Below, piece by piece: positions 34,307-52,609 of a DNA stretch of 64,000 bases. The notes beneath the pieces are model-generated. The model did not search any database, was not told the origin of the DNA, and saw only the letters and a program-made list of their open reading frames with translations. The position numbers and the translations under genes were made by a program. Positions within the stretch are counted from its first letter, which is position 1. Each line of letters starts with the position of its first letter. The DNA is from a virus. Where the stretch lies: positions 1-64,000 of IMG/VR virus record IMGVR_UViG_3300040801_003693; one strand, written 5' to 3'.

Positions 34307-34309
34307 CTC

Positions 34310-34623: not shown

Positions 34624-34653
34624 AAAAAGGGGGGATATAATATCCCCCCTTTT
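34624..34653 (-). terminator. intrinsic terminator
   Basis: A-run, ggggggata-taa-tatccccc, T-run hairpin downstream of the 34695 gene. Confidence 0.8.
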
Positions 34654-35864: not shown

Positions 35865-36000
35865 TATGATTTTCCTTTTGATAAGTGTGTTAAGGATTAA
35901 CCTCACCAAAAGAAAAAGGGGACATAAGTCCCCTTTTTTTATTAATTACTTACGTAAAGCTCGACGGGGGAATCTTCCCTCGTCAGACTTTACAAATGCA

Positions 36001-37281
36001 TTACATATTATCGAATGCATCTGGCTCTTCATTATTATCAGAACCTTTTACCTTAGAACGTACAGAAACAATTCTATCCATATAGGATATAATCTTTCTA
36101 GTAGAAATTTCCATTAAAGAATCTCCACTAAAATGTTTTTGCACAAACTTTCGGTCGAGAAAGTTGATTAAAGCTTTCTTCTGCGCCTTGTGATGAATTG
36201 CACTTATACCAAGACCTTGTGCAGCACGACGATGAATCATACATAAGATAGCCAACTGTTTAACCTCTTCAGCATTAAATCCCGAAAAGGTATAAGCCAT
36301 TAGATTTGGACACTTCTTCTCATTGAAGTTTCCACGCTCTAATAACTTGGCGATCGCACACAAGTTAAACGCACATCTGATTAATTCAAATACCTCCGTA
36401 GTTTTACATTTGTCAGTCCAGTTTTTACCAAATACTGCTTTCCATTCTTCCTCCGGCGAAGAATAATTCTCGGACTTATACTCTCCACGATACTCAGCGC
36501 TGTACATATTAAACAAGAAAGTTAATATCTCTGGGTTCATACCACCCAAAGGACCCCCCTCATACTGTCCTAACTCAGCAGCAATAAAAGCATTTGGGAA
36601 TGCTTTCAAGTATTTGGTACCGAATTTTGTTTTTAGTTCAGCGGATTGAACTGTTAACCCGTGAAGAAACAGTAAAGCAGACATCATTCCAAAGGTTAGC
36701 GGAACACCCACTAGTTTGTAGTTAGTGACTGTTTTAGAAAGATTGTCCTCCAAATCTTTGCAAGTAAAAGCAGCACCAGGAATACCTCCCCATTTGCTAC
36801 AATCAATGCTATCTTTTTGGACATCATAATCCTTACTAGCTTTCTCTAACAGTTGTGTTAGAGTGAGCCATTTTGTAGATACGCATTTCTTTGTATCTTT
36901 AGGACTTTGATAATAATCCCCAAATATTTCCCAATTCTCCGGAGAGCCGTGGATAATATGTGAAGCACGTATACCGTGGATACTTCCTTTGGGAGCTAAT
37001 CTTTCTGCTGTCTTTGTAATGAATATATCCTCTAACTCTTCATTTGAAATACACTGCATACTATTCTCAAGCATATCGTCAATTTTAAATTCAGAATGCC
37101 GCTTTAGTTCTGGTGCGGCTGATTCTTCTTCTAAATCAAACATCCATTCGTCAACAAAATTATCGATTGCTACTTGAGCATTTACCTCACCTAGAGGATT
37201 TTCTAAATGTGTAGCAAAGTTATTAATTAAGTCTTCAAAGGATTCGGAAGAGTTGTTGGAATTGTTATCGTGATTAGACAT
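36001..37281 (-). CDS. hypothetical, candidate RNAP-associated subunit
   Basis: 426 aa in the RNAP-like cluster; ends PDAFDNM. Confidence 0.65.
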   Translation of the reverse strand: MSNHDNNSNNSSESFEDLINNFATHLENPLGEVNAQVAIDNFVDEWMFDLEEESAAPELKRHSEFKIDDMLENSMQCISNEELEDIFITKTAERLAPKGSIHGIRASHIIHGSPENWEIFGDYYQSPKDTKKCVSTKWLTLTQLLEKASKDYDVQKDSIDCSKWGGIPGAAFTCKDLEDNLSKTVTNYKLVGVPLTFGMMSALLFLHGLTVQSAELKTKFGTKYLKAFPNAFIAAELGQYEGGPLGGMNPEILTFLFNMYSAEYRGEYKSENYSSPEEEWKAVFGKNWTDKCKTTEVFELIRCAFNLCAIAKLLERGNFNEKKCPNLMAYTFSGFNAEEVKQLAILCMIHRRAAQGLGISAIHHKAQKKALINFLDRKFVQKHFSGDSLMEISTRKIISYMDRIVSVRSKVKGSDNNEEPDAFDNM

Positions 37282-37333
37282 TGTAATTTTCCTTTTGTGT
37301 TAAATTTTATGTACGTTTAACCGTACTCAAAAA

Positions 37334-37446
37334 AAGAGGGAGACTAAACAATTAACAATTATCAATTAACAATTATCAATGTAAGAATTATTTTCCTTTA
37401 TTGTTAATTGTTTACTGTTTATTGTTAATTGTTTTATCTCCCTCTT
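37334..37446. repeat. STRR-like heptamer palindrome inside a terminator hairpin
   Basis: aagagggaga (CAATTAA/CAATTAT)n ... (TTGTTAA-type)n tctccctctt. Confidence 0.85.
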
Positions 37447-37486
37447 AATTGCTAGTAATAAAATTTACTAGCAATCGTTACAAAAA

Positions 37487-38785
37487 CTACATATCGTCTG
37501 GGTCGAATTGAGCTTCACCACTTGTACCTACACGATTAACGAGGGCACAACGGTTAAAGATTTTAGTAACTTTATCCACCGCACGCTCAAACAAATGCAG
37601 TTTCATTCCCTTATATTCGATAAGAGAAATACCAGTAGCAAGCGCTGCTAAACCAGAACGTATATCATCTCCCTGGTGTTGAGGAAATGATACAATACCA
37701 AAATAATTTAGCAGTCTATAAAGTTCTACTACCGCCTGGGGAGACGATGCATTACTTATCTCAAAACCTATACCTCCTGTTGAGTGATATTTAAAGTTGA
37801 TATCAAGCATTCCATCTTTGGAATACTCAATACATTCATTGAAAGTAGATTTGTTCCCATACATTTGTATAGGAGTTGCAAGGTTAGTACCCTTTTGTCT
37901 TAGTAAGTAACCAAAACTTTTACGAGTCAAACCAGACTTAAGTAACCCAACGAGCATATTACCCCACAAGTCGTGAGATTCCATGAGGAACCCAAAATAA
38001 TTTTCAGGTGTAGTTTCGTTGTCTACATTTGCGATGTAGTATCTATTACGAGGTACAAAAGCGGGATTAATTATCTCAAAAGAATTAGCATCCCAACGCA
38101 ACCAAATCAGATAACCAAAGCTTGTGATAGCAAAGATATCTGGATCTTTTGGATCTACTTTTACCGCAATGGATTTAAAGTAATCTCTCCACATTTGATA
38201 GGGAAGATTCATAATCTGAGAGCGAACCAAGTCCGCATTCGTGATTAAACTTACTTTCTTAGCAGCAATACATTCGGGAACTTTTTCAGGAAGCTCCTTA
38301 ATGATAATTACTCCTTCCTCTGCGGCTTCTTCGTAGCCATAGATTACTTGGGCATTCATACCTTCAAAGAATGCTGTCTCTGCATTTTTATCGGCATTCT
38401 CATCTAGCCAATAAAGTTTATGTTCAACCCAAGCTTCGACAATTGCTGGTGGAACTAAGTATCCTTTCTCCGCTTTGACTATTTCCATCCATCGCAGAAC
38501 AGCGTTAAGCTTAGCTATCCCTGTTTCTTCTAAAAGTTTAGGATCGCAAAACTGAGAAAAGATTTCATAGTCAATAGGAGTGTAAGACATTTCCACTCTT
38601 TCAGCCTTCATTTCTTCGGGCTGGTCTTCGTCGTATTCTACAGGTAAATCCATGAACAACCCATACCACCATGCTTCTAAAGCAGTGATGTCTATACTAC
38701 CTTCATCAAAGCGATCCATAATTGAGTCATATAGATCGACTAAAGTTTCAGCAATACCGTTAGATTGATTGTCTAAGTTAGCCAT
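37487..38785 (-). CDS. hypothetical, candidate RNAP-associated or C-terminal subunit
   Basis: start moved to MANLDNQ (GGAG SD); LFERAVDKVTK; ends QFDPDDM. Confidence 0.65.
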   Translation of the reverse strand: MANLDNQSNGIAETLVDLYDSIMDRFDEGSIDITALEAWWYGLFMDLPVEYDEDQPEEMKAERVEMSYTPIDYEIFSQFCDPKLLEETGIAKLNAVLRWMEIVKAEKGYLVPPAIVEAWVEHKLYWLDENADKNAETAFFEGMNAQVIYGYEEAAEEGVIIIKELPEKVPECIAAKKVSLITNADLVRSQIMNLPYQMWRDYFKSIAVKVDPKDPDIFAITSFGYLIWLRWDANSFEIINPAFVPRNRYYIANVDNETTPENYFGFLMESHDLWGNMLVGLLKSGLTRKSFGYLLRQKGTNLATPIQMYGNKSTFNECIEYSKDGMLDINFKYHSTGGIGFEISNASSPQAVVELYRLLNYFGIVSFPQHQGDDIRSGLAALATGISLIEYKGMKLHLFERAVDKVTKIFNRCALVNRVGTSGEAQFDPDDM

Positions 38786-38834
38786 GTGTTTCTCCAATAT
38801 ATTTGTTTATGTGCGGTTTAATGCACTCAGAAAA

Positions 38835-38943
38835 AAAGGGGGTAATCAATTAACAATAACCAGTAAACAATTAACAATGAAGAAAAATTTTTCTTGCATT
38901 GTTTATTGTTCATTGATAATTGTTAATTGGTTTGTCCCCCTTT
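38835..38943. repeat. STRR-like heptamer palindrome inside a terminator hairpin
   Basis: ggggg...caattaa caataac cagtaaa caattaa caatgaa...inverted copy...ccccc. Confidence 0.85.
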
Positions 38944-38965
38944 ATAACTAACGCGCTCACTATCT

Positions 38966-41050
38966 TTATTTCAATCTAACTGTTGCTTGTTCTGCTACAG
39001 TATGACTGGTGTTAGGATATAGTTTGCGGAATAATCTTGGTACGCTTTTGATACACTCTAAATTCTTAGGATTTTTCACCCAAGACATTAGTGCATCAAT
39101 ACTCAAGAAGTTACAAAGATCGCCGTCGTCATCTCCGTTGTTACCTCCGTACCACTCGATTGCAGGCACCGTCAGACAAGCTTTAGCAACTAACTGTTTA
39201 TCCCTAACGATGTCAGGAAACTCGCAGTATTCTGTTGCAGGACCAACTATTTTAACTACTGCAAATAAATAGCTGGGATTTGGGTTACGCCATACTAATA
39301 GACGCTTACCTTGAAGCTTGCCAGCCCAAGGATCGTTGGAAGCAAGATAAACCTCACCTTCAGTTACCCAACTGGCTTCAATACCACGAACCTTCATCGT
39401 GTATACCCGCTTACCACTCTTAGTAGCGTTCTTTAGCGGAGTGTTTCTCCCTTCCCCAAACTCGTCGTCTCCTACTACGCTCTGCTTGCAACAGCTAACG
39501 TAAATGTTCAACAACTGGTCTCGGGTAGAAGTCCAGTCTTTTGGACGGTCATCAGGATGTACACCATAATGTCTTATGATATCCACAATACACTTAGCAA
39601 CTAAATTTACACCTCCTTCGGGAGTTAATCCCATGATTTTTGCTAACTCAGTAGAAACCCAAACATCATAACCACCCCCATGAGTAATTACTAAATTGTT
39701 TGGTGCAGCTTTTAAAATACTGCTAATAGAAGACGCATCCTCAAATTCAACGTAGTTTTTATCAGTCCAATAAGTAGCTCCCTTGGGAGTTTTCTCATAG
39801 GCAACGTCGAGAAGAATTGACATCTCCCTTTCGTTCTGATAGCCTGTAGCTTTTAAAGCCAAGCCTAAATCGTTATTGATATTATGGATGGACTGCAAAC
39901 CTTCCCAATAAATCTTACCGGAACCGTTAGAAGAACGGTTTTCCTCAGTCAAAGACAGTTCAGTTGTAGTATGATGCATACCAAAGATTGCGTCTCCGGT
40001 AATAAACATATAGTTTCCACAAAACGAAACGTTCTGTTTCCCCTCATACTGCTTTTTAAGAACAGTAATAAATTCGTCACGGAAGTAACGAACTCCTACA
40101 ACTTTACGAGTTGAAGCGTCAATGAACTGATTAATTTCTCCGATTTGCTTATTGGTAGGAAATGAAGTAATACCAGATGCTCCTTCTACATCTACTTCAC
40201 GAATCTTCATTACCGAACTTTCTCCAGTCATGCAGTACTTAGTGGAAGCCCAAAGCTGTTTAGAAATTTGAGAACCTTTGATTCCCTCCGAACCAACAGC
40301 AACTTTTACGTGGGGTATACGTACAGCAGTTTCGTTCAGAATATTTTGAACGTTTGTAAAATGTTCCCCGATAGATTCGTAGAGTACGAACCCACCATAA
40401 TCCATTAAATCCTCCAAGTTTTTACAAATTGGATTGGGAACAAAACACATTTTGGCAGCTTCACCCGCAACTTTTTGGTTATTGCAGTTACGTGTAATAT
40501 GCTTACCAATGACGCGCAATCTTAACTGACCGCTGGAACTACCCTTCTCAAAATCTAAATCAGTATATTTTATTTGTGGCAACGCTGTAATTAGGAATTC
40601 AAAATCTTCTCCTTTACTATATTGAGCGGCGTTAACAAATGTTCCCGTACCCAATAAGTCTTCTTGAAATATTTTGTCCCCTGGCTTTAATACGTCACCA
40701 ACACGTACCAAATACTTGATACGTGAGCGAACTGCTTTAAGTCTTTCATCCCACTCCATCTTCGGATCTAAATTCCAAACAGAAAGTTGAAACTTAAGAT
40801 TTGCCTCGATTTCATGAAATTCAGTACCAGCAAAGTACACTGACCCAGATACTCCAGGATTTAAAATCGCTTGCAGGTTATAAGAAATAACTGTGCTTCT
40901 ATGTGCCCCCTTCTGACACACAGTCTCTTCTTCAGACTCAAATACTATTGGTGCTTCAACCCCAATGGTACTTTGTGTTGCGGATAATCTGTTGAGACCA
41001 TCTGCTAATTGAGCAGCGGATAAAGAAGCGATTTGTTTGATGTAGCTCAT
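38966..41050 (-). CDS. compact single-chain two-barrel RNA polymerase-like protein
   Basis: LLVWRNPN...NNGDDDGD (beta' RxP and DxDGD), plus beta-like VRVGDVLKPGDKIF and NQKVAGEAAK upstream. Confidence 0.7.
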   Translation of the reverse strand: MSYIKQIASLSAAQLADGLNRLSATQSTIGVEAPIVFESEEETVCQKGAHRSTVISYNLQAILNPGVSGSVYFAGTEFHEIEANLKFQLSVWNLDPKMEWDERLKAVRSRIKYLVRVGDVLKPGDKIFQEDLLGTGTFVNAAQYSKGEDFEFLITALPQIKYTDLDFEKGSSSGQLRLRVIGKHITRNCNNQKVAGEAAKMCFVPNPICKNLEDLMDYGGFVLYESIGEHFTNVQNILNETAVRIPHVKVAVGSEGIKGSQISKQLWASTKYCMTGESSVMKIREVDVEGASGITSFPTNKQIGEINQFIDASTRKVVGVRYFRDEFITVLKKQYEGKQNVSFCGNYMFITGDAIFGMHHTTTELSLTEENRSSNGSGKIYWEGLQSIHNINNDLGLALKATGYQNEREMSILLDVAYEKTPKGATYWTDKNYVEFEDASSISSILKAAPNNLVITHGGGYDVWVSTELAKIMGLTPEGGVNLVAKCIVDIIRHYGVHPDDRPKDWTSTRDQLLNIYVSCCKQSVVGDDEFGEGRNTPLKNATKSGKRVYTMKVRGIEASWVTEGEVYLASNDPWAGKLQGKRLLVWRNPNPSYLFAVVKIVGPATEYCEFPDIVRDKQLVAKACLTVPAIEWYGGNNGDDDGDLCNFLSIDALMSWVKNPKNLECIKSVPRLFRKLYPNTSHTVAEQATVRLK

Positions 41051-41101
41051 GTAATTTTCCTTTTTATGAATTCCGGATTTGTTCCGGTATGACTCAATAA
41101 A

Positions 41102-41212
41102 AAGGGGGATTAGTCAATTAACAATGACCAGTAAACAATTAACAATGAAGAATAATAGTTCTTACATTGTTTATTGTTAATTGATAATTGTTAATTGTTT
41201 ATCTTCCCCCTT
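41102..41212. repeat. STRR-like heptamer palindrome inside a terminator hairpin
   Basis: ggggg...caattaa caatgac cagtaaa caattaa caatgaa...inverted copy...ccccc. Confidence 0.85.
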
Positions 41213-41219
41213 CTAAAAA

Positions 41220-42125
41220 TTACATATTATCTAAATCACTTTCTTCCTCCGTTAATTCATTAAATAAAGACTGTATCTCTGCATCAATATATTCTATTTT
41301 TATATTTGATTCAAAGTTATTTAAATCAAGTTCTCTTGAAGATTCAATTACAGTTTCTTCTTCCTCTATTTCTAATCTCCTTTTTAGATGGTCTGTAACT
41401 TTTACTTTATTGACATAATCATTTGATTCTTCTACAACTCTTCCTTTCATTCTGTCCATAACAGAGCTAGGTCTATCTACCTTATGGATATAATCATCCC
41501 CCGGAGAGACAAGCTTTATTGCATATATCTCTGGTTTAGATATAAATACAGTAAATGCTTGGGTTGTTTTACCGTTTGCTAGTGGAATAGTTTTTAGTTC
41601 TCCTACACCTTTTGAAGAATCCGCAGATTTTACAACCATCATTTGAATCTGTAACTTCTTACGAGCAGTTACATACTCGTAAAATTTACGCCACAGATTT
41701 CCTTCTCCTTGAACGGTAGTTTTTTCTATGCCTAACATTTCTCTAATTAGAGGGGCAGAAAGATTAAACTTCCAGTTAATTGGAATCCCATGTAGCTCAG
41801 AATTATGGGATTCTAAGTTTCTAGAGATATCATCAAATTCTGTTAGTTCAATTTTTCCTTCTGAGTTGGGTTGTATTCCCCATCCTCTCCAAGAAGTTAG
41901 GAATGGAGTTTGAATTCCCGCTTTTCCTGATTTAGTTATAAACCCATTGTTTACAGTAACGGTTGTCCCACCAGTACTAGACGACTTTTGCTCCGGTCCT
42001 GATAATGATAAGGTCAGTACAAATCCGTTCTCTTTCACCCAGGAGCGATCGCACTCTTGTGTAAGGTCAACTAAGTTGTTAAAAATTTCTTGTAAAGACC
42101 ATTTACCGTTCTTTGAAATAGCCAT
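41220..42125 (-). CDS. acidic-tailed hypothetical protein, paralog of 34695..35864
   Basis: start moved to MAISK (GAGGG SD after the leader hairpin); ends EEESDLDNM. Confidence 0.7.
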   Translation of the reverse strand: MAISKNGKWSLQEIFNNLVDLTQECDRSWVKENGFVLTLSLSGPEQKSSSTGGTTVTVNNGFITKSGKAGIQTPFLTSWRGWGIQPNSEGKIELTEFDDISRNLESHNSELHGIPINWKFNLSAPLIREMLGIEKTTVQGEGNLWRKFYEYVTARKKLQIQMMVVKSADSSKGVGELKTIPLANGKTTQAFTVFISKPEIYAIKLVSPGDDYIHKVDRPSSVMDRMKGRVVEESNDYVNKVKVTDHLKRRLEIEEEETVIESSRELDLNNFESNIKIEYIDAEIQSLFNELTEEESDLDNM

Positions 42126-42465
42126 AGTATATCCCTCTTTTTTATTTGCTCTAGACTTGTCAAATAAAAAGGGAACGGATTTTATGTTTGTCTTCATAAT
42201 AAAAACTATCTGGGTAGCAGCGTTATCTGTCGCTGTATTAATAAGTAATTTATTTGTTAGTCTTTTATACTTGTTTTTTGTAACAAAGAACAACTAGCAA
42301 TATTACTTAAATATTTTTATTATTTACTCAGATAATTTTATTCCTGTGTATGTATACTTAAGTATGTATACTTTTTATGTATTTTAAACTTCAATATTTA
42401 AGTAGGGGTATAGAATACTTATGGAACGAATTATTTTATACCTCACTCACATTATATTAAATTTT

Positions 42466-42915: not shown

Positions 42916-42978
42916 TTCTTTTCTTTGTATTATTTGTACAAAGAAAAAGGGGAGACATTGCCCCCTAATTAATATAAA

Positions 42979-43464: not shown

Positions 43465-43535
43465 GTTAAATCCTTTTGTATTTTGGTTACAAAAGAAAAG
43501 GGGGCAATGCCCCCAGTAATACTGTTAAACTTTCC

Positions 43536-44396: not shown

Positions 44397-44458
44397 GGCT
44401 TTTTCTTTGTATTGTTTAGTACAAAGAAAAAGGGGCATAAGCCCCCAATAGAAATTAA

Positions 44459-44824
44459 TTACAGCAATTCTATTACTGAATACTTGTTGTTCATAACCAG
44501 TAACCAAGATGGATGTGATTGCAAACTTTTCATAAACCAATCTCTAACTTTTTCCCATCCAGGGAAGTAAGATAGGTTTTCACTTATCTCCCAGTATTTA
44601 TGTATTTCATACCATGAGTATCCTATCAAACCTAACTGAAAGGATATTATAAGAATCTCTTCCCCCGGAGAGACACCTAGTTTGGTATAGATATGTGTAG
44701 CATCATGAACTTCTTCGCTACGCAGTTTTGTTTTATCCCAGTCATACTGAGCATCTAATCCATTGCGATCGCGAAACTGTTTAGCTAATTTTGCAACGTG
44801 TTTCTTTGCTTGACGATTATTCAT
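44459..44824 (-). CDS. cassette family B: HDxxH-x10-E (Coq4-like motif) protein
   Basis: HDATHIYTKLGVSPGEE. Confidence 0.7.
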   Translation of the reverse strand: MNNRQAKKHVAKLAKQFRDRNGLDAQYDWDKTKLRSEEVHDATHIYTKLGVSPGEEILIISFQLGLIGYSWYEIHKYWEISENLSYFPGWEKVRDWFMKSLQSHPSWLLVMNNKYSVIELL

Positions 44825-44888
44825 TTAAATTTCTCCTTAGTTGGAAGTGAGTCAACTAAGAAGAAAAAAGGGAGTATGAATAAATCAA

Positions 44889-44972: not shown

Positions 44973-45048
44973 TATTTTTCCTTTTTGAGTTGAGTACCTT
45001 CTAAAGCTAAAAGGGAGTATTCTTTTAGCAGAAACGTTGGGCTTGACT

Positions 45049-45549
45049 TCAACAGAAACAGACCTTATTGCTTATCCTTTTTCTAAACAAATTGCTAATA
45101 TTTTTAAAGAAGTTGTCAGCTACTTCTACTACAGGTAATTCAATGTTGCCTATCAATACCATTCTCTCCCAGGAGGAAAGAACTAATCCAAGAAAGCTTT
45201 TGAATAAAGCTATAACATAATCTATATTATGTTCGTTGCTATATGCTTGAGCTTCTATTTCCCAATTACGTTTGTTGTAGTAGTTTTTAATCTCCTTGGT
45301 TATTTTTCCTTTGATGTTTAATTCTATACCCAGATTTTTATCTAAGTAATCTTGAAGTGCGTGTATTGCTTCATGAACAAATGTTGTCCAGGAAGTTTTC
45401 TTTTTGAGGATTATACTTTTAATTGAATGATCGTAACAGCCTTGGATTCTTTTATCTTTCATTACTATATCTTTCCACTCTACTGATACACCTATTTTGC
45501 GTACTAGTTTTAGCAAGGTATTTAGTTTTGTTTTAGGTAAATTTTTCAT
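45049..45549 (-). CDS. cassette family A: HExxH zincin-like metalloprotein
   Basis: start moved to MKNLPK; QGCYD...TFVHEAIHALQ...EIEAQAYSNE. Confidence 0.75.
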   Translation of the reverse strand: MKNLPKTKLNTLLKLVRKIGVSVEWKDIVMKDKRIQGCYDHSIKSIILKKKTSWTTFVHEAIHALQDYLDKNLGIELNIKGKITKEIKNYYNKRNWEIEAQAYSNEHNIDYVIALFKSFLGLVLSSWERMVLIGNIELPVVEVADNFFKNISNLFRKRISNKVCFC

Positions 45550-45739
45550 TGTCTTTTCCTTTGTATTATTTGTACAAAGAAAAAGGGAGAAGTTTACTGG
45601 AGAGAATATCTTCCTAGTAAACTTCGGAGGAAACATATCTTAATAATTTAGAAAGAAATACCTTTGGGTTGAACGATTTACTTATAGAGAGTATTTATGT
45701 TAAGTTGGTAGGAAATAAAATATTATCTAAATAAGGATC

Positions 45740-45904
45740 ATGATTGGTTTTCTTATCTACTTAGCATTGATATTTTTATTGACTACAATTATTACTCCAA
45801 TTTGTAGTAGTACAATAGACGTTTTTTGGAAAGATATACTCATTGGAATTATTGTAGGAATAGTCTCTATTGTTGGATATTTGAAAGGAAAGGATGTTTT
45901 CTAA
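45740..45904 (+). CDS. 54-aa two-TM membrane peptide, antisense to the array (not in ORF track)
   Basis: TAAGGA-tc-ATG; MIGFLIYLALIFLLTTII...DILIGIIVGIVSIVGYLKGKDVF*; followed by a bidirectional hairpin at about 45914-45933. Confidence 0.55.
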   Translation: MIGFLIYLALIFLLTTIITPICSSTIDVFWKDILIGIIVGIVSIVGYLKGKDVF

Positions 45905-45944
45905 ATTATATATAAAAGGGGATTATCCCCTTTTATATATAATT

Positions 45945-46367
45945 TTACATTAAACAAGCTTGAACTGAACCTAGAATAGCCGTTAGTTTTTTAGATTCTT
46001 GAGTTGTACCTTGACGACACTTCTCAAATAAATCTTGAAATGAAACTGTGTTTAGTAATTCAAAAGAATAACCAGTAACAGAAACTAACATAGACTCTTC
46101 TACGTTCTTTTTCAACAAGTCAATCCAAGCCACATTTTCAGAATGCAATTCGTAGTAGTCTACAGGTTCTAATGAAGAGACTAAATAATCTACTGTAGCA
46201 GACCAAGTTGCGGACATATCACTAATGCTGAAGATTAAATTATCTCCATCCCAACGGAATGAAGATACTTCAATCGGCAATGACATATCTACTTTTATAG
46301 GTAGTCCTTCTACCATTACAGTAGTAGACAAACTATTTGCAGGATTAACAAATACTAAATCAAACAT
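45945..46367 (-). CDS. cassette family D hypothetical protein
   Basis: MFDLVFVNPANSLSTTVMVEGLP...WDGDNL. Confidence 0.7.
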   Translation of the reverse strand: MFDLVFVNPANSLSTTVMVEGLPIKVDMSLPIEVSSFRWDGDNLIFSISDMSATWSATVDYLVSSLEPVDYYELHSENVAWIDLLKKNVEESMLVSVTGYSFELLNTVSFQDLFEKCRQGTTQESKKLTAILGSVQACLM

Positions 46368-46443
46368 GGATTTCTCCTTTATGAATTAAAGTTCAATAAA
46401 GAAGAAAAAGGGGGAGCGATAATACTCCCCAGCTTTCATAACC

Positions 46444-46830
46444 CTAAGCTTTATATGTCATTACTTCTATATACATATCCCTGTTTCTCTTTGAAGGGTT
46501 TGAGTTGTATGTAAAATCGTTTTGATGTATTTTGCTAGAGACAAATCCTAACTTCTCATACACACTCTTTCTATAATTCTCTCCTCCATCCAGACTATGA
46601 GCCTGACAAAAGATTGAATCATATTGATTTTTTTTAATAAACTCATTCCACTTACTATAAAGAAACTTACTTATGTAATATCTTTCTTTCTTAGAAAGAT
46701 AAGGATTAAAGTCAAAACTATTGTTTACTTTAAATTGAACGGAATAAACGCCTTCGCTAACTAAAGTAAATGTAATCTCAACTATGTTTCCTAAAATATC
46801 TTTCTCAAAAGTAATTTGTTTTAAATGCAT
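46444..46830 (-). CDS. cassette family C: GNAT-like small protein
   Basis: FKVNNSFD...CQAH..DGGENYRKSVYEKLGF. Confidence 0.65.
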   Translation of the reverse strand: MHLKQITFEKDILGNIVEITFTLVSEGVYSVQFKVNNSFDFNPYLSKKERYYISKFLYSKWNEFIKKNQYDSIFCQAHSLDGGENYRKSVYEKLGFVSSKIHQNDFTYNSNPSKRNRDMYIEVMTYKA

Positions 46831-46860
46831 TGCAACCCTTTTATTATTGACGAATAAACA

Positions 46861-46941
46861 TCAATAAAAAGGGCGACATTTGACACGGGAGGCAATTTCA
46901 GGAGGAAGATTCTTCCTGAAAGGTCTGATATCCTTTTTCAT
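46861..46941 (-). CDS. 26-aa micro-cassette ORF (not in ORF track)
   Basis: MKKDIRPFRKNLPPEIASRVKCRPFY* with a complete canonical leader at 46942-46981. Confidence 0.5.
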   Translation of the reverse strand: MKKDIRPFRKNLPPEIASRVKCRPFY

Positions 46942-46999
46942 TTTCTTGAATTAAACATCAAGAAAAAAGGGATTGCTCCCTTAATTCATAAATAATTAT

Positions 47000-47428
47000 T
47001 TATAGTCCACCATACACACACTCAATAGTCTCTTCTTGACAAGGAGTTCTAGGTGCGAAGGCAATAGTAAGTATTGGAAAAGTCAGTACTAATACTATTA
47101 TGAGAACCTGTAATATAAAACCTTTACTCCATATAGACTCTGGAGCATAAGTTAATATTTCAGGTTCGCTTGCCCAACCCTCAGAGGGAACTGGTTGATG
47201 ATCGACCAACTCCGGCTCTAAAAGTTGTATGAGGTACTGTAAGGTGTGAACCCATGCCTCACGACTTTCTTTATTTGGGTGTTCTATTTGGACAATCAAG
47301 TCGTTATTTTCCCAATGATATTCAACAATATCAATAGGTAAAGAGACTGGAACGTCAACAGGTACACCTTCAACAAAGATTGTGTTGGATAAGGACTTTT
47401 GGCAGTTGTTAAATACTAGTGTAAACAT
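47000..47428 (-). CDS. cassette family D hypothetical protein with C-terminal TM helix
   Basis: MFTLVFNNCQKSLSNTIFVEGVP; ILQVLIIVLVLTFPILTIAF. Confidence 0.7.
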   Translation of the reverse strand: MFTLVFNNCQKSLSNTIFVEGVPVDVPVSLPIDIVEYHWENNDLIVQIEHPNKESREAWVHTLQYLIQLLEPELVDHQPVPSEGWASEPEILTYAPESIWSKGFILQVLIIVLVLTFPILTIAFAPRTPCQEETIECVYGGL

Positions 47429-47501
47429 GAGATTTTTCCCTTGTAAAGTGCAATAAAAAAGGGAAAATAATAAAGGGTGATATTAAATCACCCTCTAAAA
47501 A

Positions 47502-47864
47502 TTAATTTAGAAGAAGCTGTACCTCTTTCCAAAACTCATCATCAAACTCAGGAAGTTTGTTTTTATTGTCTTTCCATACTTGAATGAAATGATTGTATTC
47601 TTCAACAATTAAAGCTTCTGGAAATATAATATTGTAATCAAACAACATTTGAATTCCACAATAAACTTTGTTCAATTCTTCATAGTCTTTATAACCCTGT
47701 TCTAAAAGAACAACCATTATTTCTTCTTTATAGGAAGGACCTAAATTGAAGAACACATGAACCATATCATGCTTTATTGCCTGCAATACTTTTGGAACTG
47801 ATAAGTTGTGCTTTTCCAACCACACTTTATAATCAGCAACAAAATACATAGCGTCAGTAGTCAT
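47502..47864 (-). CDS. cassette family B: HDxxH protein
   Basis: HDMVHVFFNLGPSYKEE. Confidence 0.7.
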   Translation of the reverse strand: MTTDAMYFVADYKVWLEKHNLSVPKVLQAIKHDMVHVFFNLGPSYKEEIMVVLLEQGYKDYEELNKVYCGIQMLFDYNIIFPEALIVEEYNHFIQVWKDNKNKLPEFDDEFWKEVQLLLN

Positions 47865-47931
47865 TATAATTTTCCTTTGTTAGTAGAAATCAACAAAAGA
47901 AAAAAGGGAGACATTGCTCCCCCTCATTTAT

Positions 47932-48351
47932 TTATCTAAGACTGTTTAGAAACGCTTCCCTTCTTTCTACATAAAAGTTAAACTCATTGACAAATCTCCA
48001 AGGTATTTCTACCACTTTGTCATATAAAAACAGTACGTGCTTTTTGATAAACATATACTGCTCTTGAGTTAAGACTTCCCCTTTGCTTTCTATTTTATAG
48101 AAGTCATTTACATAATCATATGAAATAACATTTTCCATGCCATAATTTTGGGCGTACTCTATAAGAGATACTACTGTCTCTCCAAAAGGAGAAACACCCA
48201 TGTCGCAAAGAGTATGCATCATATCATGATACAAAAATCTATTATCCCCAGCAGGGATTTGAAGGTTATGCTTTTCAATCCAGTCGTAGTAGCACTGCAC
48301 TACTTCCAATACATCATTGTCTTTAACTAGATTAAATTTTGCGTTAGTCAT
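47932..48351 (-). CDS. cassette family B: HDxxH protein
   Basis: HDMMHTLCDMGVSPFGE. Confidence 0.7.
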   Translation of the reverse strand: MTNAKFNLVKDNDVLEVVQCYYDWIEKHNLQIPAGDNRFLYHDMMHTLCDMGVSPFGETVVSLIEYAQNYGMENVISYDYVNDFYKIESKGEVLTQEQYMFIKKHVLFLYDKVVEIPWRFVNEFNFYVERREAFLNSLR

Positions 48352-48409
48352 TGCTTTTCTTGAAGATAAACATCAAGAAAAAAGGGCGACAATTAAGCCG
48401 CCTTTAAAA

Positions 48410-48829
48410 TTAAACTTTATTTAACTCTTTATGAACCTTCACCCAAAAATGTTTAGGACGATGGTGTAGATGAATCCGAATGATTGGTAAAGCATATCTA
48501 TATCTTTTGACAATAGATATGTAAACACTATTCTTCATCTCCGAGGAGGGAAAAGAAAGAATGGAGTTTAATTGTTTGTAGACCGCTTCTACAAACTCTT
48601 TACGATGAACGCTTACGCATCCATACTCAATCTCTAACTCTATAAGCCTTATAGCTACCTCTTCCTCTGGAGAAGTAGAGAACTGACTAAGAACATGATA
48701 GAAATCATGCTCTCTCAATTCTTTATTATTTGCTTTAGGCAAATCAATTTTGTTTTTACTTAACCAAACTTTATAGTCGGATACATAAGAATCAATTTGC
48801 AAGTTAGCTTGAACATCTTTAATATTCAT
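48410..48829 (-). CDS. cassette family B: HDxxH protein
   Basis: HDFYHVLSQFSTSPEEE. Confidence 0.7.
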   Translation of the reverse strand: MNIKDVQANLQIDSYVSDYKVWLSKNKIDLPKANNKELREHDFYHVLSQFSTSPEEEVAIRLIELEIEYGCVSVHRKEFVEAVYKQLNSILSFPSSEMKNSVYISIVKRYRYALPIIRIHLHHRPKHFWVKVHKELNKV

Positions 48830-48904
48830 TATTGTTTTCCTTGAAGTTAAACATCAAGAAAAAAGGGTGATTATATGCCACCCTTTTAAAACACTCTCAC
48901 GTTT

Positions 48905-49441
48905 TTAATAAATACCGAAATCCTCCATTATTTTGTTTACTAAATTATGATACTTAACCAAATCGCTACCCATGATTTTATTTGTTAAATAGACTACGTG
49001 ACAATATTTATACTCTTCCCACAATATTTTGTAGGCTTTAGTAAGATCCTTTGTCTTTTTTAAGACTTCTGAAATCTGGTAGTCTAACTCCCATTCTTCA
49101 TATATGTCTAATGTGTCTGTATTGATATCGTACTCCGAACCAAGATGAATCATTTCCCCGCTAGAGGAATAGAAACTAAACCCGGCTTTTTTAAACATTC
49201 TAGTCCTTTCAACTTGTCTTTCATCTCCGGAGAAAGGTATACACTTTAAATAAGCAAAACTATTATTCATCTTAAAATCTTTAAAAGAATTTAATATAAA
49301 CCTAGTAATTGCTATTTTAGATTTTACCTCCCCCATTGAATATGACCCGTTTACTTGAACGCAGACTGTATAAGAGTTATCAAAGTTAGGTTTAAAACTT
49401 AACTTTACGTTATCGCCACAAACATTATTTAAATAAAGCAT
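48905..49441 (-). CDS. cassette family C: GNAT-like protein
   Basis: VQVNGSY...AITRFI...CIPF..DE...ERTRMFKKAGF. Confidence 0.65.
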   Translation of the reverse strand: MLYLNNVCGDNVKLSFKPNFDNSYTVCVQVNGSYSMGEVKSKIAITRFILNSFKDFKMNNSFAYLKCIPFSGDERQVERTRMFKKAGFSFYSSSGEMIHLGSEYDINTDTLDIYEEWELDYQISEVLKKTKDLTKAYKILWEEYKYCHVVYLTNKIMGSDLVKYHNLVNKIMEDFGIY

Positions 49442-49498
49442 TGTTTTTTCTTGAAATAAACATCAAGAAAAAAGGGCATAACGCCCTTATTATTAAAA

Positions 49499-49861
49499 TT
49501 ATTTTTTAGCTTTTAACTTCATCTTTATCTCCTCGGAGATGAATGCAATCTGTGTAGGCTTTTTATACTTGTATCTAAAACCCATTTTGTAATAAGCTTT
49601 TTTACGATACTCACCACCACCATCATCCTTGTGAGCCTCACAAGTAATGACATCAAAGTCAACTTCATCAATAAACAATTTCCAATGAACTAATAACCAT
49701 TTGGTAATAGCAAGCTTAGTTCTTTTTGGAATGTTTGGATTGATATCCAAACTATCATTTACTGTGAAGAATACTTCCCACACTTTCTTCTCCATCCGAA
49801 GAAAAGAGAAGTAAATGTGGTTGCCATCTATAATGGTTTCGTAATCTTTTAAATCGCACAT
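49499..49861 (-). CDS. cassette family C: GNAT-like protein
   Basis: start moved to MCDLK; FTVNDSLD...CEAHKDDGGGEYRKKAYYKMGF. Confidence 0.65.
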   Translation of the reverse strand: MCDLKDYETIIDGNHIYFSFLRMEKKVWEVFFTVNDSLDINPNIPKRTKLAITKWLLVHWKLFIDEVDFDVITCEAHKDDGGGEYRKKAYYKMGFRYKYKKPTQIAFISEEIKMKLKAKK

Positions 49862-49932
49862 AATCTTTTCCTTGAAAATAACTTCAAGAAAAAGAAATAA
49901 GGGTGACTTAATAATCACCTCTTATAGAAGAA

Positions 49933-50244
49933 TTATTTTCTATAACATCTAGCTATAGAATTCTCTTCTTCAAAACCTAACTTTTTATAAACCTTTTCTC
50001 TGTACTCTCCTTCTCCATCTTCTTGATAGGCATAACATCTGATAATATCAAACGTCTGATTACTTAAGAAATGTTTCCAACTAGTTAATAACCATCTTGT
50101 AATTTTAATTTTATTTAGTTTGGATATTGAAGGGTCTATATCGTAGTAACCATTTATTTTAAAATCTACAGAGTACTCTTTAGGTTGCCAGGATTCAAAA
50201 GAAAGAGATACATTTATTCCGTTGATATTAGTAGAGTAATTCAT
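49933..50244 (-). CDS. cassette family C: GNAT-like protein
   Basis: start moved to MNYSTN; FKINGYYD...CYAYQEDGEGEYREKVYKKLGF. Confidence 0.65.
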   Translation of the reverse strand: MNYSTNINGINVSLSFESWQPKEYSVDFKINGYYDIDPSISKLNKIKITRWLLTSWKHFLSNQTFDIIRCYAYQEDGEGEYREKVYKKLGFEEENSIARCYRK

Positions 50245-50301
50245 TGTTTTTCTTGATATAAACATCAAGAAATAAGGGCGAAATTGTCGCCCTTATTATT
50301 A

Positions 50302-50673
50302 TTAAAATACTTCTGTATAGATATTCTCTTCTTGAGAAATGAAACTCTCAGAGAAATATCCTAGATAACCTGTTCTTAAAACAGGAATAAACCCTAATTT
50401 TTTATATGCCTTTGTTCTATATTCTTTTTCTCCATCCTCTTTGTAAGGTATACAATATACCCACTCGAAGGTGTTAGAAGTAATAAAACTTTTCCAAACA
50501 TCTAACAGCCATTTGGTTATTAGATATTTATCTTTTTTAGACAAATTAGGATCTAAGTCGTGACTTCCATTAACTTTGAAATCTGCCATGTAACTATGGT
50601 TTTCGATTCCCGTTTTGAAAGTGAACACAACTTCGTTATCGTTAACAATTGTATTAAATTGAATAGTAGCCAT
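50302..50673 (-). CDS. cassette family C: GNAT-like protein
   Basis: start moved to MATIQF; FKVNGSHD...CIPYKEDGEKEYRTKAYKKLGF. Confidence 0.65.
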   Translation of the reverse strand: MATIQFNTIVNDNEVVFTFKTGIENHSYMADFKVNGSHDLDPNLSKKDKYLITKWLLDVWKSFITSNTFEWVYCIPYKEDGEKEYRTKAYKKLGFIPVLRTGYLGYFSESFISQEENIYTEVF

Positions 50674-50792
50674 AAGAATTTCTTCTTTGTTAATAAACAT
50701 CAACAAAGAAGAAAAAAATAAGGGAGACACTTTGACACAGGGCACAGCCCGTGTCAAAGTGTCGGTCGTGACATTACTGCCACCCTAAAGTA

Positions 50793-51161
50793 TTAAGCTG
50801 CTAATAGCTGATTGACTTTATCGAAGAATGTATAATTAAGCTCTACAAAATCTTTTGATAAGATATTATAAAACTTAACTAAACATTGATACTGTTCTCT
50901 ACTTAACTGTTCAGTTCCCTTAGAGATTTCTGAATAGTTAATAGCAGCAGTATCGTAGTCGAAAACAAATCCTTGTTCCACCATTGCGACTATACCTTCC
51001 TCCGGATAAGACACACCCAAGTCCGTTAGGACATGAACGTAATCGTGCATCCGAAAGAATTCACAGTCTGGTAAATCCAGATTATTCTTTTCCAACCACT
51101 TCAAATAAGCATCAACATAACCCTGTGGGTCGTTAGCTAAATGAAATTTAGTATTTAACAT
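50793..51161 (-). CDS. cassette family B: HDxxH protein
   Basis: HDYVHVLTDLGVSYPEE. Confidence 0.7.
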   Translation of the reverse strand: MLNTKFHLANDPQGYVDAYLKWLEKNNLDLPDCEFFRMHDYVHVLTDLGVSYPEEGIVAMVEQGFVFDYDTAAINYSEISKGTEQLSREQYQCLVKFYNILSKDFVELNYTFFDKVNQLLAA

Positions 51162-51225
51162 TGTTCTTGAATATAAACATCAAGAAAAAAGGGCAGCATT
51201 TCTACTACCCTTGTATACACAGTTC

Positions 51226-51873
51226 TTAATAATTGCATTCGCTAATATCTGGGGCTGTGCATGAATCCCAATAAACAGTATCTTCTACTGTAATATTGGG
51301 AGAAAAAGAACTAGTTTGAAGAAGGATCATAGCAACCAATCCAAAAAACCTAAACCGATTCAGATTAAATGGATATGCTCGAACAGAATTCCACGAAGTT
51401 ACCCTCGTGAAATTTGGTTGCTTGATTTGATAAACATTGTATCGACAATTAGGTTGCCTGTTACGTTGTTCTACCAAGCATTGCATTATCTGCAATACTA
51501 AATATGGATAGCTTTCTAAAGCTACAGCAGCATACTCTAATGCAGAGTATCTGTTGTCCCATATTTTCTTCAATTTTGAGATAGAAGGTTTTGCTATTCC
51601 CATTCTTTCGAGCAGGATATCAGCTTCTGCCACCGTCGCCAAACACCCGTATGCTTGAATCAAGTGAACACACTCATGCGTAAAAATCGTAATCCTTTCT
51701 TGAGGAGCGAGATTTTCGTAATCATAGATTACAATTTTTTTATAAAATGCATTATAAATTCCTGACGTTCCCTCACGCTTCCCTTCATATAGCAATTTAT
51801 GACCAAAATCATCCACGATAACTTTTGCAAAAGTTTCTTCTAATCTTTTTAATTCTTTAATTGATACGCTCAT
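51226..51873 (-). CDS. cassette family A: HExxH zincin-like metalloprotein
   Basis: SGIYN...IFTHECVHLIQ...LEYAA. Confidence 0.7.
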   Translation of the reverse strand: MSVSIKELKRLEETFAKVIVDDFGHKLLYEGKREGTSGIYNAFYKKIVIYDYENLAPQERITIFTHECVHLIQAYGCLATVAEADILLERMGIAKPSISKLKKIWDNRYSALEYAAVALESYPYLVLQIMQCLVEQRNRQPNCRYNVYQIKQPNFTRVTSWNSVRAYPFNLNRFRFFGLVAMILLQTSSFSPNITVEDTVYWDSCTAPDISECNY

Positions 51874-51943
51874 AGGATTTCTCCTTTGTTAATAAACAGC
51901 AACAAAGGAGAAAAAAAGGGCAGCATTACTGCCACCCTTAAAG

Positions 51944-52403
51944 TTATTCTCTTTCTAACTTAAACAAAAGCATTTGATATTCTACTCTAAACGAACTCTC
52001 CAAGTACTCTACCTGGCTAAGCTTATTTATCTTGGTTAGCCTATAGTTCATCATAGACATCAGTTGAGTCTTATCGTGAATAGATATCTCAGGACTGCTC
52101 ATGACACTATTAATGTCATAAATCTCAGCCCTCCAGGCTAATACTTGGTTCTCATTATTTGTTTTATCTGGATAGTTGAATCCTTGCGGATTCAAATTAT
52201 GCCGGAGAAAAGCAAACGAATGATGCCAAGCATTCTTAGCCTCTTCACTATTGTGTTCAACCTGGAAAACCAGGTTATCACCGGGAGCATTCATAGCTGA
52301 TGATATCGCTTGGTAGCGACATCTCTACTACTACTGGGTATCCCTCTACCATCACTGTGGTGGATAAGGACTTAGTGGGATTAATAAATACTAATGTAAA
52401 CAT
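51944..52403 (-). pseudogene. cassette family D gene split by a +1 frameshift near 52285
   Basis: MFTLVFINPTKSLSTTVMVEGYP...SYECSR* continues in the +1 frame as GDNLVFQVEH..E...AW, matching 45945 and 47000. Confidence 0.75.
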
Positions 52404-52609
52404 GAGGTTTCCCTTGTTCTTAAGTGCAATAAAAAAGGGACACTCAAGTTCAATTTGTATAAGTTTCTGTGCAGAAATCACGTCTGGGTGGGGGGTACCC
52501 ACACACAAATAAATTAGTTAAAATATCCGCAGCAACTTTTTTAAAATAGAAAGCTCTTGATTAATTTAGTAAACTGTAGCTATAGTATAAATAATAAATA
52601 TTATCTAAT

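Follow-up and report, generated by a model that had tools for sequence, protein, structure and literature searches.

Hairpins that occlude the ribosome-binding site (RBS) are found at the T4 genes e and soc, and in the early regions of phages T7 and T3 one structured RNA element, an RNase III site, lies between each pair of genes. In T4-type phages a short conserved composite motif, the PeSL, stands between nearly all small ORFan genes of the hyperplastic region, and insertions, deletions and replacements between related phages break at these motifs (PMC2839356; PMC4122927). In PeSLs a stem-loop terminator capped by G/C is followed by the Shine-Dalgarno sequence (SD) and the ATG of the next gene at the end of the motif, and PeSL recombination gives rise to excised mini-circles. 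T4 also keeps cassette-like genes silent on transcripts from upstream by RBS-occluding hairpins: at I-TevI, I-TevII, I-TevIII and segB, and at mobE of Aeh1, a stable hairpin hides the SD on upstream-derived RNA, and in T4 a late or middle promoter inside the hairpin region makes the unlocked RNA (PMC2988022). Here, an intergenic element, termed joint, is described in the first 64,000 nucleotides (the window) of IMG/VR virus record IMGVR_UViG_3300040801_003693, a record of 135,938 bp that was judged 78% complete. In a joint the U-tract behind a terminator-like hairpin (hairpin 1) is part of the 5' arm of a second hairpin (hairpin 2), whose 3' arm covers the initiation region of the next gene.

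The joints resemble PeSLs in their position between small ORFan genes, in the order of terminator, SD region and ATG, which is found by sequence, and in the breakpoints observed in related phages. PeSLs are, however, defined by a strong sigma-70-like early promoter (AT-rich region, -35 and -10), and none is detectable in the joints. Pairing of the terminator U-tract with the SD, which characterizes the joints, is not described for PeSLs in the available text (PMC2839356). Moreover, PeSLs belong to T4-type coliphages, whereas the joints stand in a Ma-LMM01-like phage with a cyanobacterial host and without T4-like core genes. With the T4 hairpins the joints share a stable hairpin over the SD and initiation region, but the 5' arm of the T4 hairpins is not a terminator U-tract, they precede single genes as against ∼20 in a row here, and no promoter inside the hairpin region was found in the joints (PMC2988022). 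By analogy, a joint would combine the action of a promoterless PeSL with an RBS lock of the T4 type, in which the U-tract of the terminator itself provides the 5' arm. The RNase III sites of T7 and T3 are longer, irregular double hairpins that do not systematically hide the RBS, whereas a joint consists of a terminator and a perfect short stem. No description of these joints in Ma-LMM01-like phages was found in the literature searched, and the words terminator, hairpin and stem-loop do not occur in the Ma-LMM01 transcriptome paper.

Double-hairpin joints between the array genes

From 52,403 down to 34,695 every sizeable open reading frame (ORF) lies on the minus strand, and the two-hairpin design occupies this strand between 52.4 and 42.9 kb and recurs at 35.9 kb. 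Before nearly every gene from 51,873 to 42,915 the same order was observed: a stop codon (mostly TAA), 4-21 nt, the GC-rich hairpin 1, a T-run, hairpin 2 and the ATG. The 5' arm of hairpin 2 begins in the T-run, and its 3' arm is the purine-rich stretch before the ATG. When the best hairpin ending at most 8 nt from the ATG was searched for, with G-U pairs allowed and gene starts curated by eye, hairpin 2 was found at all 17 curated starts between 51873 and 42915, with 7-16 contiguous pairs, a loop of 4-16 nt and an end 2-6 nt before the ATG. Folded alone it has a free energy of -5.2 to -16.4 kcal/mol at 37 °C. Hairpin 1 is variable, with a stem of 4-12 bp, a loop of 3-8 nt without a conserved base and a T-run that starts 0-3 nt after the stem. 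The spacing between stop codon and hairpin 1 has two exceptions, 45549, which has no upstream co-directional ORF, and 44824, which has no clear hairpin 1. Directly behind a stop codon, a GC hairpin and a U-tract constitute an intrinsic terminator, and by sequence hairpin 1 has these marks, namely a GC-rich stem of ∼5-12 bp, a loop of 3-8 nt and a direct U-tract shortly past the stop codon. The host phylum is not known to encode Rho.

An initial annotation of this DNA, made from the sequence alone, had described the shared use of one U-tract by a GC hairpin and an RBS hairpin, and this could be confirmed by direct reading of the sequence, by shuffles, by comparison with other genes, by arm swaps and with a covariance model; its example at 48829 is exact. 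The five stems that it quoted all exist, four of them in curated leaders and the fifth, TTTTATTTG/CAAATAAAA, at 42140-42169 ahead of the ATG at 42125. Its figure of more than 20 cassettes is on the high side. A strict descriptor that requires a GC hairpin, a T-run, 7 bp or more in hairpin 2 and an ORF of 40 aa or more recovers 14 distinct leaders, whereas curation yields 20 clear ones, the 17 together with 35864, 46941 and 42125, and at most 24 if weak leaders are included. Among the latter, 52403 has hairpin 2 only, 41050 has a 9-bp long-range pairing, and 38785 and 37281 have ∼5 bp of pairing between U-tract and RBS. Elsewhere in the record a structure-only descriptor gave two weak rows, at 93,566 and 20,847, and covariance model R1 had no match in the whole record outside 46.9-51.2 kb at E <= 1. 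The direct repeats of 42.3-52.7 kb are almost entirely leaders. Comparison of the array with GenBank phages by megablast gave no match, and no Rfam covariance model reached its gathering score in the 64-kb window.

Between 35000 and 54000, 42 terminator-like sites were counted, compared to 9.1 ± 3.4 in 50 shuffles. A start-proximal stem of at least 9 bp is present at 14 of 18 array genes and at 9 of 128 other genes (crude gene calls), one of these nine being 35864, which itself belongs to the finding; shuffled upstream regions of the array reached such a stem in 48 of 3600 cases. The whole intergenic leaders folded as two adjacent hairpins in 15 of 15 cases, with z-scores of -2.5 to -8.4 and 0-4 of 200 shuffles equalling them. 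On three block-shuffled genomes the double-hairpin descriptor gave 0, 0 and 1 hits.

The conserved feature of the joints is structure and not sequence, as had been claimed from the covarying stems. When arms were swapped between leaders, the own arms paired over a mean of 11.6 bp, compared to 1.5 bp for 342 foreign arm pairs. The arms fall into ∼9 complementarity classes, including CTTGA/TCAAG, TTTGTTG/TAACAAA, CTTTGTA/TACAAAG, CTTAGTTG/CAACTAAG, CTTTAT/ATAAAG and CCCTT/AAGGG, and R1, built from three class-1 leaders only, recovers the other classes on the minus strand of the array. In alignment A7, which comprises 25 rows (15 minus-strand leaders and 10 mirrored plus-strand rows) and was fitted to the model, towards which it leans, 95.9% of cells are paired, compared to 87.2% in shuffles (reached by 0 of 500), and both sides change in 7 of 10 pairs, compared to 2.8 in shuffles; sliding the partner by 1-3 columns lowered pairing to 54-68% of cells. 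The MAFFT alignment A2 of 17 leaders did not keep pairs in columns, so that RNAalifold on A2 is meaningless; the covariance-model alignment and loop-anchored tables were used instead. Among 32 leaders from five records, 31 distinct arm pairs were found, in which the basal pairs always join a pyrimidine in the 5' arm to a purine in the 3' arm, and the loop-proximal pairs are AT, TA, GC or CG.

The loop often holds TGTTTA, as had been noted before (9 of 19 leaders), and in intergenic DNA of this genome TGTTTAT occurs 27 times compared to 8.2 expected. A motif of TGA, 2-3 nt and T(T/A)TA is common to the loops of distant genomes (TGATGTTTA and TGAACTTTAATTC here, TGAATTTTAATC, TGATCTATAACC and TAGTTTATAATC in relatives).

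The cassette proteins include four small paralogue families whose members are only 23-65% identical, and searches against Pfam and PHROGs assigned them to no firm family. Families B and C have no mutual similarity, yet they carry near-identical leaders, for example at 49,441 and 48,351, which indicates that the leader is a module that spread or was homogenised independently of the genes. In family B (50793-51161, 48410-48829, 47932-48351, 47502-47864 and 44459-44824, and 1638-2024 of locus L022) HDxxH is followed by E ∼10-12 residues on; the HDxxH stretch has a weak Pfam match to Coq4 (E 0.0011), and a homologue is present in the related record G005. Family D (51873, 45549 and 43464) has an HExxH-like motif and weak matches to metallopeptidase families.

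Joints and cassette breakpoints in related phages

The window encodes RIIA-like, RNR and ThyX proteins and a giant ORF. Over 99% of its length this ORF shares 24% identity with gp080 of the Microcystis phage Ma-LMM01 and with the MaMV relatives, and it partly matches a Microcoleus phage protein. On the basis of the similarity to gp080, the phage is placed by sequence as a distant relative of Ma-LMM01 and the Fukuivirus group of cyanophages. With an alignment of the giant protein (A6) nine IMG/VR loci were found, and the design of the joints persists in relatives whose giant proteins are 24-27% identical to that of the window phage. Since R1 rests on three class-1 leaders, the structure-only descriptor was used for relatives; the lack of R1 copies in L009, L013, L016 and L017 carries low weight for the same reason. 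An exact pattern of the class-1 leader gave one chance match in viral contigs, unrelated and inside a gene of a contig of higher GC.

Descriptor hits precede six consecutive small genes in L010, four in L012 and one in L009, and three weak ones were found in L013. All five cultured Fukuivirus isolates carry joints: Ma-LMM01 3, MaMV-DC 6, MaMV-DH01 8, MaMV-CH02 3 and MaMV-DL02 6, those of Ma-LMM01 preceding ORFs of 39, 171 and 50 codons in the gp064-gp067 region, at ∼50.6-51.4 kb of NC_008562.1. In the isolates the arms of hairpin 2 are TTCCTTCTAG/CTAGGAGG, TTCCTTCTAG/CTAGGAGGGA, TCCTTCTGG/CCAGGAGGA or TTCCTTG/CAAGGAG, so that a true AGGAGG SD faces an anti-SD-like run after the terminator T-run, and the hairpin ends 1-7 nt before the ATG. 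Joints with yet different arms, TCTTCTGTT/AACAGGAGA and TTTTTCTTGTGC/GCACAAGGAGAA, precede the homologues of families B and C in G005, the record that contains L009. L013 is the closest relative by giant protein (37% identity) and has the same gene order.

The arrays of all Fukuivirus records directly follow two to four tandem promoter-like units, which were found in Ma-LMM01, the MaMV isolates, L010 and L012 and occur nowhere else in Ma-LMM01. The unit at the array head of the window is present in a single copy in the 136-kb record and is, by sequence, recognisably homologous to the tandem units. It was looked for and not found in L008, L009, L011 and L013-L017.

Gene replacement, loss and insertion in these relatives break at joints, as the comparison of cassette order among L010, L012 and Ma-LMM01 revealed (no close relative of the window phage was found). 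L010 and L012 have similar DNA from hairpin 1 across the T-run as far as the SD side of hairpin 2; then unrelated-looking ORFs of 112 and 656 codons follow, each with its own terminator stem, and the likeness restarts at the T-run of the next joint. Where L010 has two cassettes, of 107 and 44 codons, Ma-LMM01 has a 39-codon ORF, and the breaks are once more at joints. Ma-LMM01 also lacks the 248-codon cassette of L010, which is flanked there by a duplicate of part of the neighbouring 49/50-codon cassette. Cassette number and order vary among the five isolates, in which the leader TCCTTCTGG ... CCAGGAGGA precedes ORFs of 112, ∼250 and 697 codons. The expectation that boundaries of gene gain and loss would be tied to the element is thus borne out.

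Ma-LMM01 (locus L007, NC_008562.1) also contains unannotated ORFs of 39 and 50 codons behind complete joints, at L007 positions 33114-33233 (between gp067 and gp066) and 34014-34166. The 50-codon ORF is conserved in MaMV-DC, MaMV-DH01, MaMV-DL02 and L010.

Possible functions of the joints

From the sequences we infer termination at hairpin 1, repression by hairpin 2 and homologous recombination between joints. On balance, and with slightly better than even confidence, a joint is a portable intercistronic unit that combines an intrinsic terminator with an RBS-occluding hairpin and is also a site of homologous recombination. Hairpin 1 and its U-tract would be a canonical intrinsic terminator closing the upstream cassette, and the U-tract with the following pyrimidines would be an anti-SD mimic that pairs with the purine-rich initiation region of the next gene. 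Transcription reaches the 3' arm only past the termination point, so that hairpin 2 would form only on read-through RNA, where it would bury the next RBS to within 2-6 nt of the AUG. The next cassette would thereby be blocked at two levels, and each small ORFan gene would be insulated twice, by attenuation of transcription and by masking of translation. A perfect helix of 7-16 bp over about -20 to -3 must melt before the 30S subunit binds, which lowers initiation, and the anatomy fits such a translation lock: the region before the start is predicted to be paired to 2-6 nt of the ATG, with compensatory change in distant relatives. All joints share a core of CCC, T-run and pyrimidines and may therefore serve as homologous recombination sites at which cassettes would be duplicated, lost, replaced and reordered. 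Judging by the analogy with PeSLs, homologous recombination at the CCC-T-run core is the likely route of cassette exchange.

Several points weigh against this interpretation. Approximately 18 strong-looking terminators in series behind one promoter-like unit would silence the distal genes unless another factor acts, and permanent masking of the RBS appears disadvantageous if there is no way of lifting it; candidates for an opener, a DEAD helicase, an RNase III or a sigma factor, were not found in the 78% complete record. Hairpin 1 of the joint at 45549 terminates no upstream ORF, which may point to a separate function of hairpin 1 within the leader. A 4-mer SD core is present at only 9 of 18 array genes, so that the 3' arm is often an A-rich region and not a true SD; genome-wide use of the SD is low as well (30 of 128 genes). 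The shared loop motif is left unexplained and is the best hint of binding or initiation at the loop. In addition to the lean of A7 towards its model, termination, read-through and repression are all deduced from the anatomy of the DNA.

Candidate ways past the terminators are leaky termination that gives a gradient, ribosomes halted at the stop codons 4-21 nt from hairpin 1, processive antitermination, a promoter inside the joint, and a phage polymerase. Near 45.7 kb, after the opposite-strand gene, some transcription start must exist, and inspection of the sequence there by eye gave no convincing promoter. Translational coupling, in which upstream ribosomes open hairpin 2, was rejected since the stop codons lie 25-45 nt upstream of the 5' arm, except at the mini-ORF 46941. 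A put-like antiterminator RNA needs one copy per operon and was rejected because one copy per gene is present here.

Passage of the ∼18 terminators would be solved by a composite of the T4 and PeSL type, in which a promoter would lie inside or close to the loop of hairpin 2, or else inside that of hairpin 1. A transcript started inside the joint would lack the 5' arm (or the terminator) and so be translatable, and read-through RNA would be locked, which is exactly the arrangement of T4 I-TevI, I-TevII, I-TevIII and segB (PMC2988022); PeSLs likewise set the terminator stem-loop inside the promoter (PMC2839356). The AT-rich loops, with their motif common to distant genomes and with TATAAT or TATAAC in some loops of relatives of 48% GC, are consistent with this, as is the intergenic enrichment of TGTTTAT. 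However, sigma-70-like sites are not enriched (80, compared to 74.0 ± 7.3 expected), and among the best 60 of these 80 two touch leaders (48857-48828 and 47447-47418), with the second hexamer on or after the ATG. A TAnnnT hexamer is present in roughly half of the loops, as judged by eye and without statistics, and a start ∼7 nt past it would fall inside or after the SD, so that just 3-12 nt would be left as leader. The shared loop motif is absent from the class 3 and class 4 loops (CAAATAA, ACCAAAA and ACTCACTTC), and no conserved promoter hexamer pair was found in the leader alignments A2 and A3. This composite is considered rather unlikely.

Two further readings involve phage RNA polymerases. 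The array adjoins the giant gene, downstream of the unique conserved unit, and GGDFDGD is present at 58469 in this ORF of ∼3,700 codons and NNGDDDGD at 39139 in an ORF of 694 aa, whose product is a possible minimal two-barrel RNA polymerase, judging by its motif. The language-model neighbours of the 694-aa protein are phage clusters partly assigned to PF05183 (RdRP-like; score 0.95, 27 of 30 hits). With a low probability, the double hairpin would be the punctuation of a host-independent early transcription, in which the joints filter so that only a phage polymerase expresses the array: the injected giant DFDGD protein would start at the 52.5 kb unit and pass the ordinary terminators that stop the host polymerase, host-made read-through RNA would be terminated and locked, and the very long hairpins at 41-37 kb would stop the phage enzyme before the second, 694-aa polymerase gene. 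Slightly less probable still is that the joints are start and/or stop signals for these two enzymes, the giant one possibly virion-borne, in the manner of N4 or P23-45. An N4-type hairpin promoter has a stem of 5-7 bp, a 3-nt loop and a fixed geometry, and the stems of 4-12 bp and loops of 3-8 nt of hairpin 1, which also varies in sequence, do not conform to it; this variation, together with all the marks of a bacterial intrinsic terminator, suits a terminator better.

P23-45 has a virion and a non-virion two-barrel polymerase, and the window phage may likewise carry two such enzymes and an early region divided by conserved motifs; in P23-45 the virion polymerase has its own promoters, and a 26-nt motif is conserved at seven termination sites (10.1101/2022.12.01.518664). 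Those are sequence motifs mapped by cappable-seq, however, whereas here structure is conserved and the polymerases are putative (10.1101/2022.12.01.518664). For the virion enzyme of a crAss-like phage, the sequences upstream of early transcripts revealed no common motif (10.1101/2020.03.07.982082). The identity of both proteins here comes from motifs only: Pfam, PHROGs and PDB-profile searches gave no match, PF05183 has none in the genome, and the AlphaFold2 model of the 694-aa protein (3-row alignment) has a pLDDT of 41.

The early R sites of T7 are irregular double-stranded regions of ∼20 bp with internal loops that are cut by RNase III. The joints might similarly be processing sites at which host RNase III, E or J cuts the RNA into monocistronic mRNAs with protective 3' and 5' hairpins, since one structured element stands between every gene pair, as in T7, and pairing of the whole spacer save the loops would shield the U- and A-rich stretches from single-strand nucleases. 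The stems are, however, perfect, only 7-16 bp long and without internal loops, the 78% complete record yielded no phage RNase III, and processing leaves unexplained why the paired stretch invariably includes the initiation region and ends at a distance of 2-6 nt from the AUG. This possibility is given the same small weight as the polymerase signals.

A marginally smaller weight is assigned to the joints being a by-product of the natural complementarity of U-tract and RBS in a compact genome, with their similarity as a trace of recent tandem duplication. The basal pyrimidine-purine pairs are as expected for a U-tract facing an A/G-rich RBS, and the array does hold paralogue families. The inner 3-8 loop-proximal pairs, however, belong to neither U-tract nor SD and change on both sides, arm pairs are distinct in 31 of 32 leaders, the design persists where the giant proteins are only 24-27% identical, leaders are far better conserved than the paralogous proteins and common to unrelated families, and long stems are rare at other genes (9 of 128). 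By covariation this explanation is largely refuted.

It is highly improbable that both hairpins form a single 'hairpin cluster' terminator with an incidental RBS overlap. In a genome survey, two-thirds of the predicted intrinsic termination units are reported to be groups of neighbouring hairpins, mostly two (PMC8355165), but behind hairpin 2 there is an A-rich sequence and the ATG in place of a U-tract, the distance from the 3' end of hairpin 2 to the start codon is kept at 2-6 nt here and at 1-7 nt in relatives, and the first gene, 52403, has hairpin 2 without hairpin 1.

A single-gene cassette array, apparently promoterless and with a palindromic element for each gene behind one promoter-like unit, recalls an integron, but attC-like single-stranded sites for a site-specific recombinase can practically be dismissed: attC is an imperfect palindrome defined by extrahelical bases, whereas the stems here are perfect and contiguous and have none, tyrosine recombinase (PF00589) has no match in the 78% complete record (the control was positive in 14 of 14 genomes), and the breakpoints in relatives lie within shared sequence, as expected for homologous exchange. 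Of the earlier proposal that single-stranded DNA hairpins shuffle the cassettes, the shuffling thus stands, with breaks at joints in relatives and one leader on unrelated families, and the integron-like site does not. Taken together, the interpretations offered in the initial annotation are partly supported.

Further features of the array and implications

The leaders and associated features are listed in Table 1.

Table 1. Leaders and other elements of the array, from its head downwards (window coordinates; z refers to folding of the whole leader relative to shuffles).
Feature	Position	Strand	Description	z
Promoter-like unit, array head	52486..52535	-	TTGCTG, 17 nt, AT-rich hexamer, palindrome GGGTACCC, C-run	
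First-gene leader	52404..52440	-	lacks the GC terminator; hairpin 2 alone (TCCCTT/AAGGGA, long loop)	
Joint, ATG 51873	51874..51943	-	10-bp GC hairpin, T-run, 14-bp hairpin 2 TTTCTCCTTTGTTG/TAACAAAGGAGAAA, 4 nt	-7.25
Joint, ATG 51161	51162..51225	-	hairpin 2 TTCTTGA/TCAAGAA	-4.13
Joint, ATG 50673	50674..50792	-	terminator split by 38-nt palindrome (50763-50726); hairpin 2 16 bp	-8.37
Joint, ATG 50244	50245..50301	-		-7.80
Joint, ATG 49861	49862..49932	-	hairpin 2 14 bp	-6.37
Joint, ATG 49441	49442..49498	-	hairpin 2 11 bp	-4.76
Joint, ATG 48829	48830..48904	-	example of the initial annotation	-2.53
Joint, ATG 48351	48352..48409	-		-4.37
Joint, ATG 47864	47865..47931	-	hairpin 2 13 bp	-4.11
Joint, ATG 47428	47429..47501	-	TTTTCCCTT/AAGGGAAAA, 16-nt loop	-5.60
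Joint, mini-ORF ATG 46941	46942..46982	-	hairpin 2 8 bp; only a 27-codon mini-ORF follows	
Leader, ATG 46830	46831..46877	-	11-bp hairpin 2 CCTTTTTATTG/TAATAAAAGGG; hairpin 1 atypical	
Joint, ATG 46367	46368..46443	-	12-bp hairpin 2, loop TGAACTTTAATTC	-4.12
Joint, ATG 45549	45550..45625	-	hairpin 1 10 bp, lower GC; hairpin 2 13 bp; first co-directional gene after opposite-strand gene	
Leader, ATG 44824	44825..44874	-	CTCCC, T-run, 14-bp hairpin 2; no clear hairpin 1	
Joint, ATG 44396	44397..44458	-	hairpin 2 13 bp	-5.69
Joint, ATG 43464	43465..43535	-		-2.55
Joint, ATG 42915	42916..42978	-		-3.16
Looser leader, ATG 42125	42126..42173	-	CCC, T-run, 10-bp hairpin TTTTTATTTG/CAAATAAAAA ending 13 nt before ATG; gene start uncertain	
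Very long AT-rich hairpin, 694-aa gene ATG 41050	∼41103..41216	-	AACAATTAACAAT-type units, G5/C5 cap, T-run; coordinates approximate	
Second very long hairpin, ATG 38785	38833..38943	-	55-nt arms, 75% complementary, T-run	
Third very long hairpin, ATG 37281	37334..37446	-	54-nt arms, 81% complementary, T-run	
Joint, ATG 35864	35865..35938	-	11-bp GC hairpin, T-run, 16-bp hairpin 2 with G-U pairs	-6.76

The first array gene (51944-52403) is split over two frames, with 41 codons from 52403 and then 116 codons to 51944, and its paralogues 47428 and 46367 are intact; a frameshift, a pseudogene or a sequencing error would each account for the split. The loop of its leader is related to that of the leader of its paralogue 47428 (family D12). 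The 38-nt perfect palindrome at 50726-50763 (GACACTTTGACACGGG...) is embedded in sequence that resembles a copy of the 51873 terminator; related sequence recurs at ∼46885-46900, and the palindrome is possibly a small mobile insert. The mini-ORF at 46858-46941, which may be the remnant of a deleted cassette, extends into the following joint, where its TGA lies in the 5' arm and loop of hairpin 2, and is the only site where upstream translation could open a lock. A lone small ORF on the opposite strand (45740-45938; 54 codons, hydrophobic) breaks the array and ends at a bidirectional terminator (45910-45938).

The arms of the very long hairpins measure 54-55 nt at 37.4 and 38.9 kb and 33-37 nt at 41.1 kb and are 75-85% complementary, and in the leader of 41050 a long-range pairing CCTTTTTAT/ATAAAAAGG is possible. 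They belong to a family of long AT-rich inverted repeats, built of AACAATTAACAAT or ATTGTTTATTG units directly upstream of genes, with further members at 69480-69557 and 79940-80075 of the record; three of the repeats, the very long hairpins of Table 1, have G5/C5 caps and a T-run. The sequence TTGTTTATTG has 8 intergenic copies compared to 1.1 expected. The repeats may be a binding motif or extra-long terminators. In TerR of plasmid pLS20 a long stem makes a terminator resistant to antitermination (PMC10325885). Like TerR, each of the three very long hairpins has a U-tract and an unusually long stem, here downstream of a run of ordinary terminators of the same direction; the TerR stem, however, has 15 bp, compared to AT-rich, repeat-built arms of 45-55 nt and 75-85% complementarity here, and this phage is not known to have an antitermination system, so that the parallel is a lead only (PMC10325885). 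Further down, tandem repeats of 41-55 nt (2.3-3.4 copies, rich in TGAATCATGAAT) occupy 34087-34307 in the long spacer upstream of the gene starting at 34008 and adjoin two strong bidirectional terminators (34310-34326 and 34626-34652).

The giant ORF, the gp080 homologue with GGDFDGD, runs on the minus strand over 55200-64000 and on to ∼66300 of the record and has one in-frame TGA at 61896-61898, which could be a true split, a site of read-through or recoding, or an assembly error; its homologue in L013 is a single uninterrupted ORF of 3,703 codons. A 2186-aa ORF, used alone as query, gave no related loci. The 694-aa ORF (38966-41050, minus strand), with NNGDDDGD near its C-terminus, has only two database relatives, of 62% and 44% identity; no related loci were found among viral and metagenome contigs with the protein alone or with alignment A1, and tblastn against phages gave none.

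If the combination of terminator, RBS lock and recombination seam is true, the joints would be a compact design in which one U-tract both releases the transcript at a terminator and supplies the anti-SD arm for a translational lock, repeated ∼20 times and maintained by compensatory change across a cyanophage lineage. It would extend the idea of PeSLs, regulatory joints that are also seams of shuffling, from T4-type coliphages to the unrelated Ma-LMM01 group, without the promoter by which PeSLs are defined. Joints are present in cultured phages of Microcystis aeruginosa (Ma-LMM01, MaMV-DC and others) for which an infection transcriptome has been published, so that the mechanism is directly testable, and the passage of serial terminators could be tested in the phages of this bloom-former.

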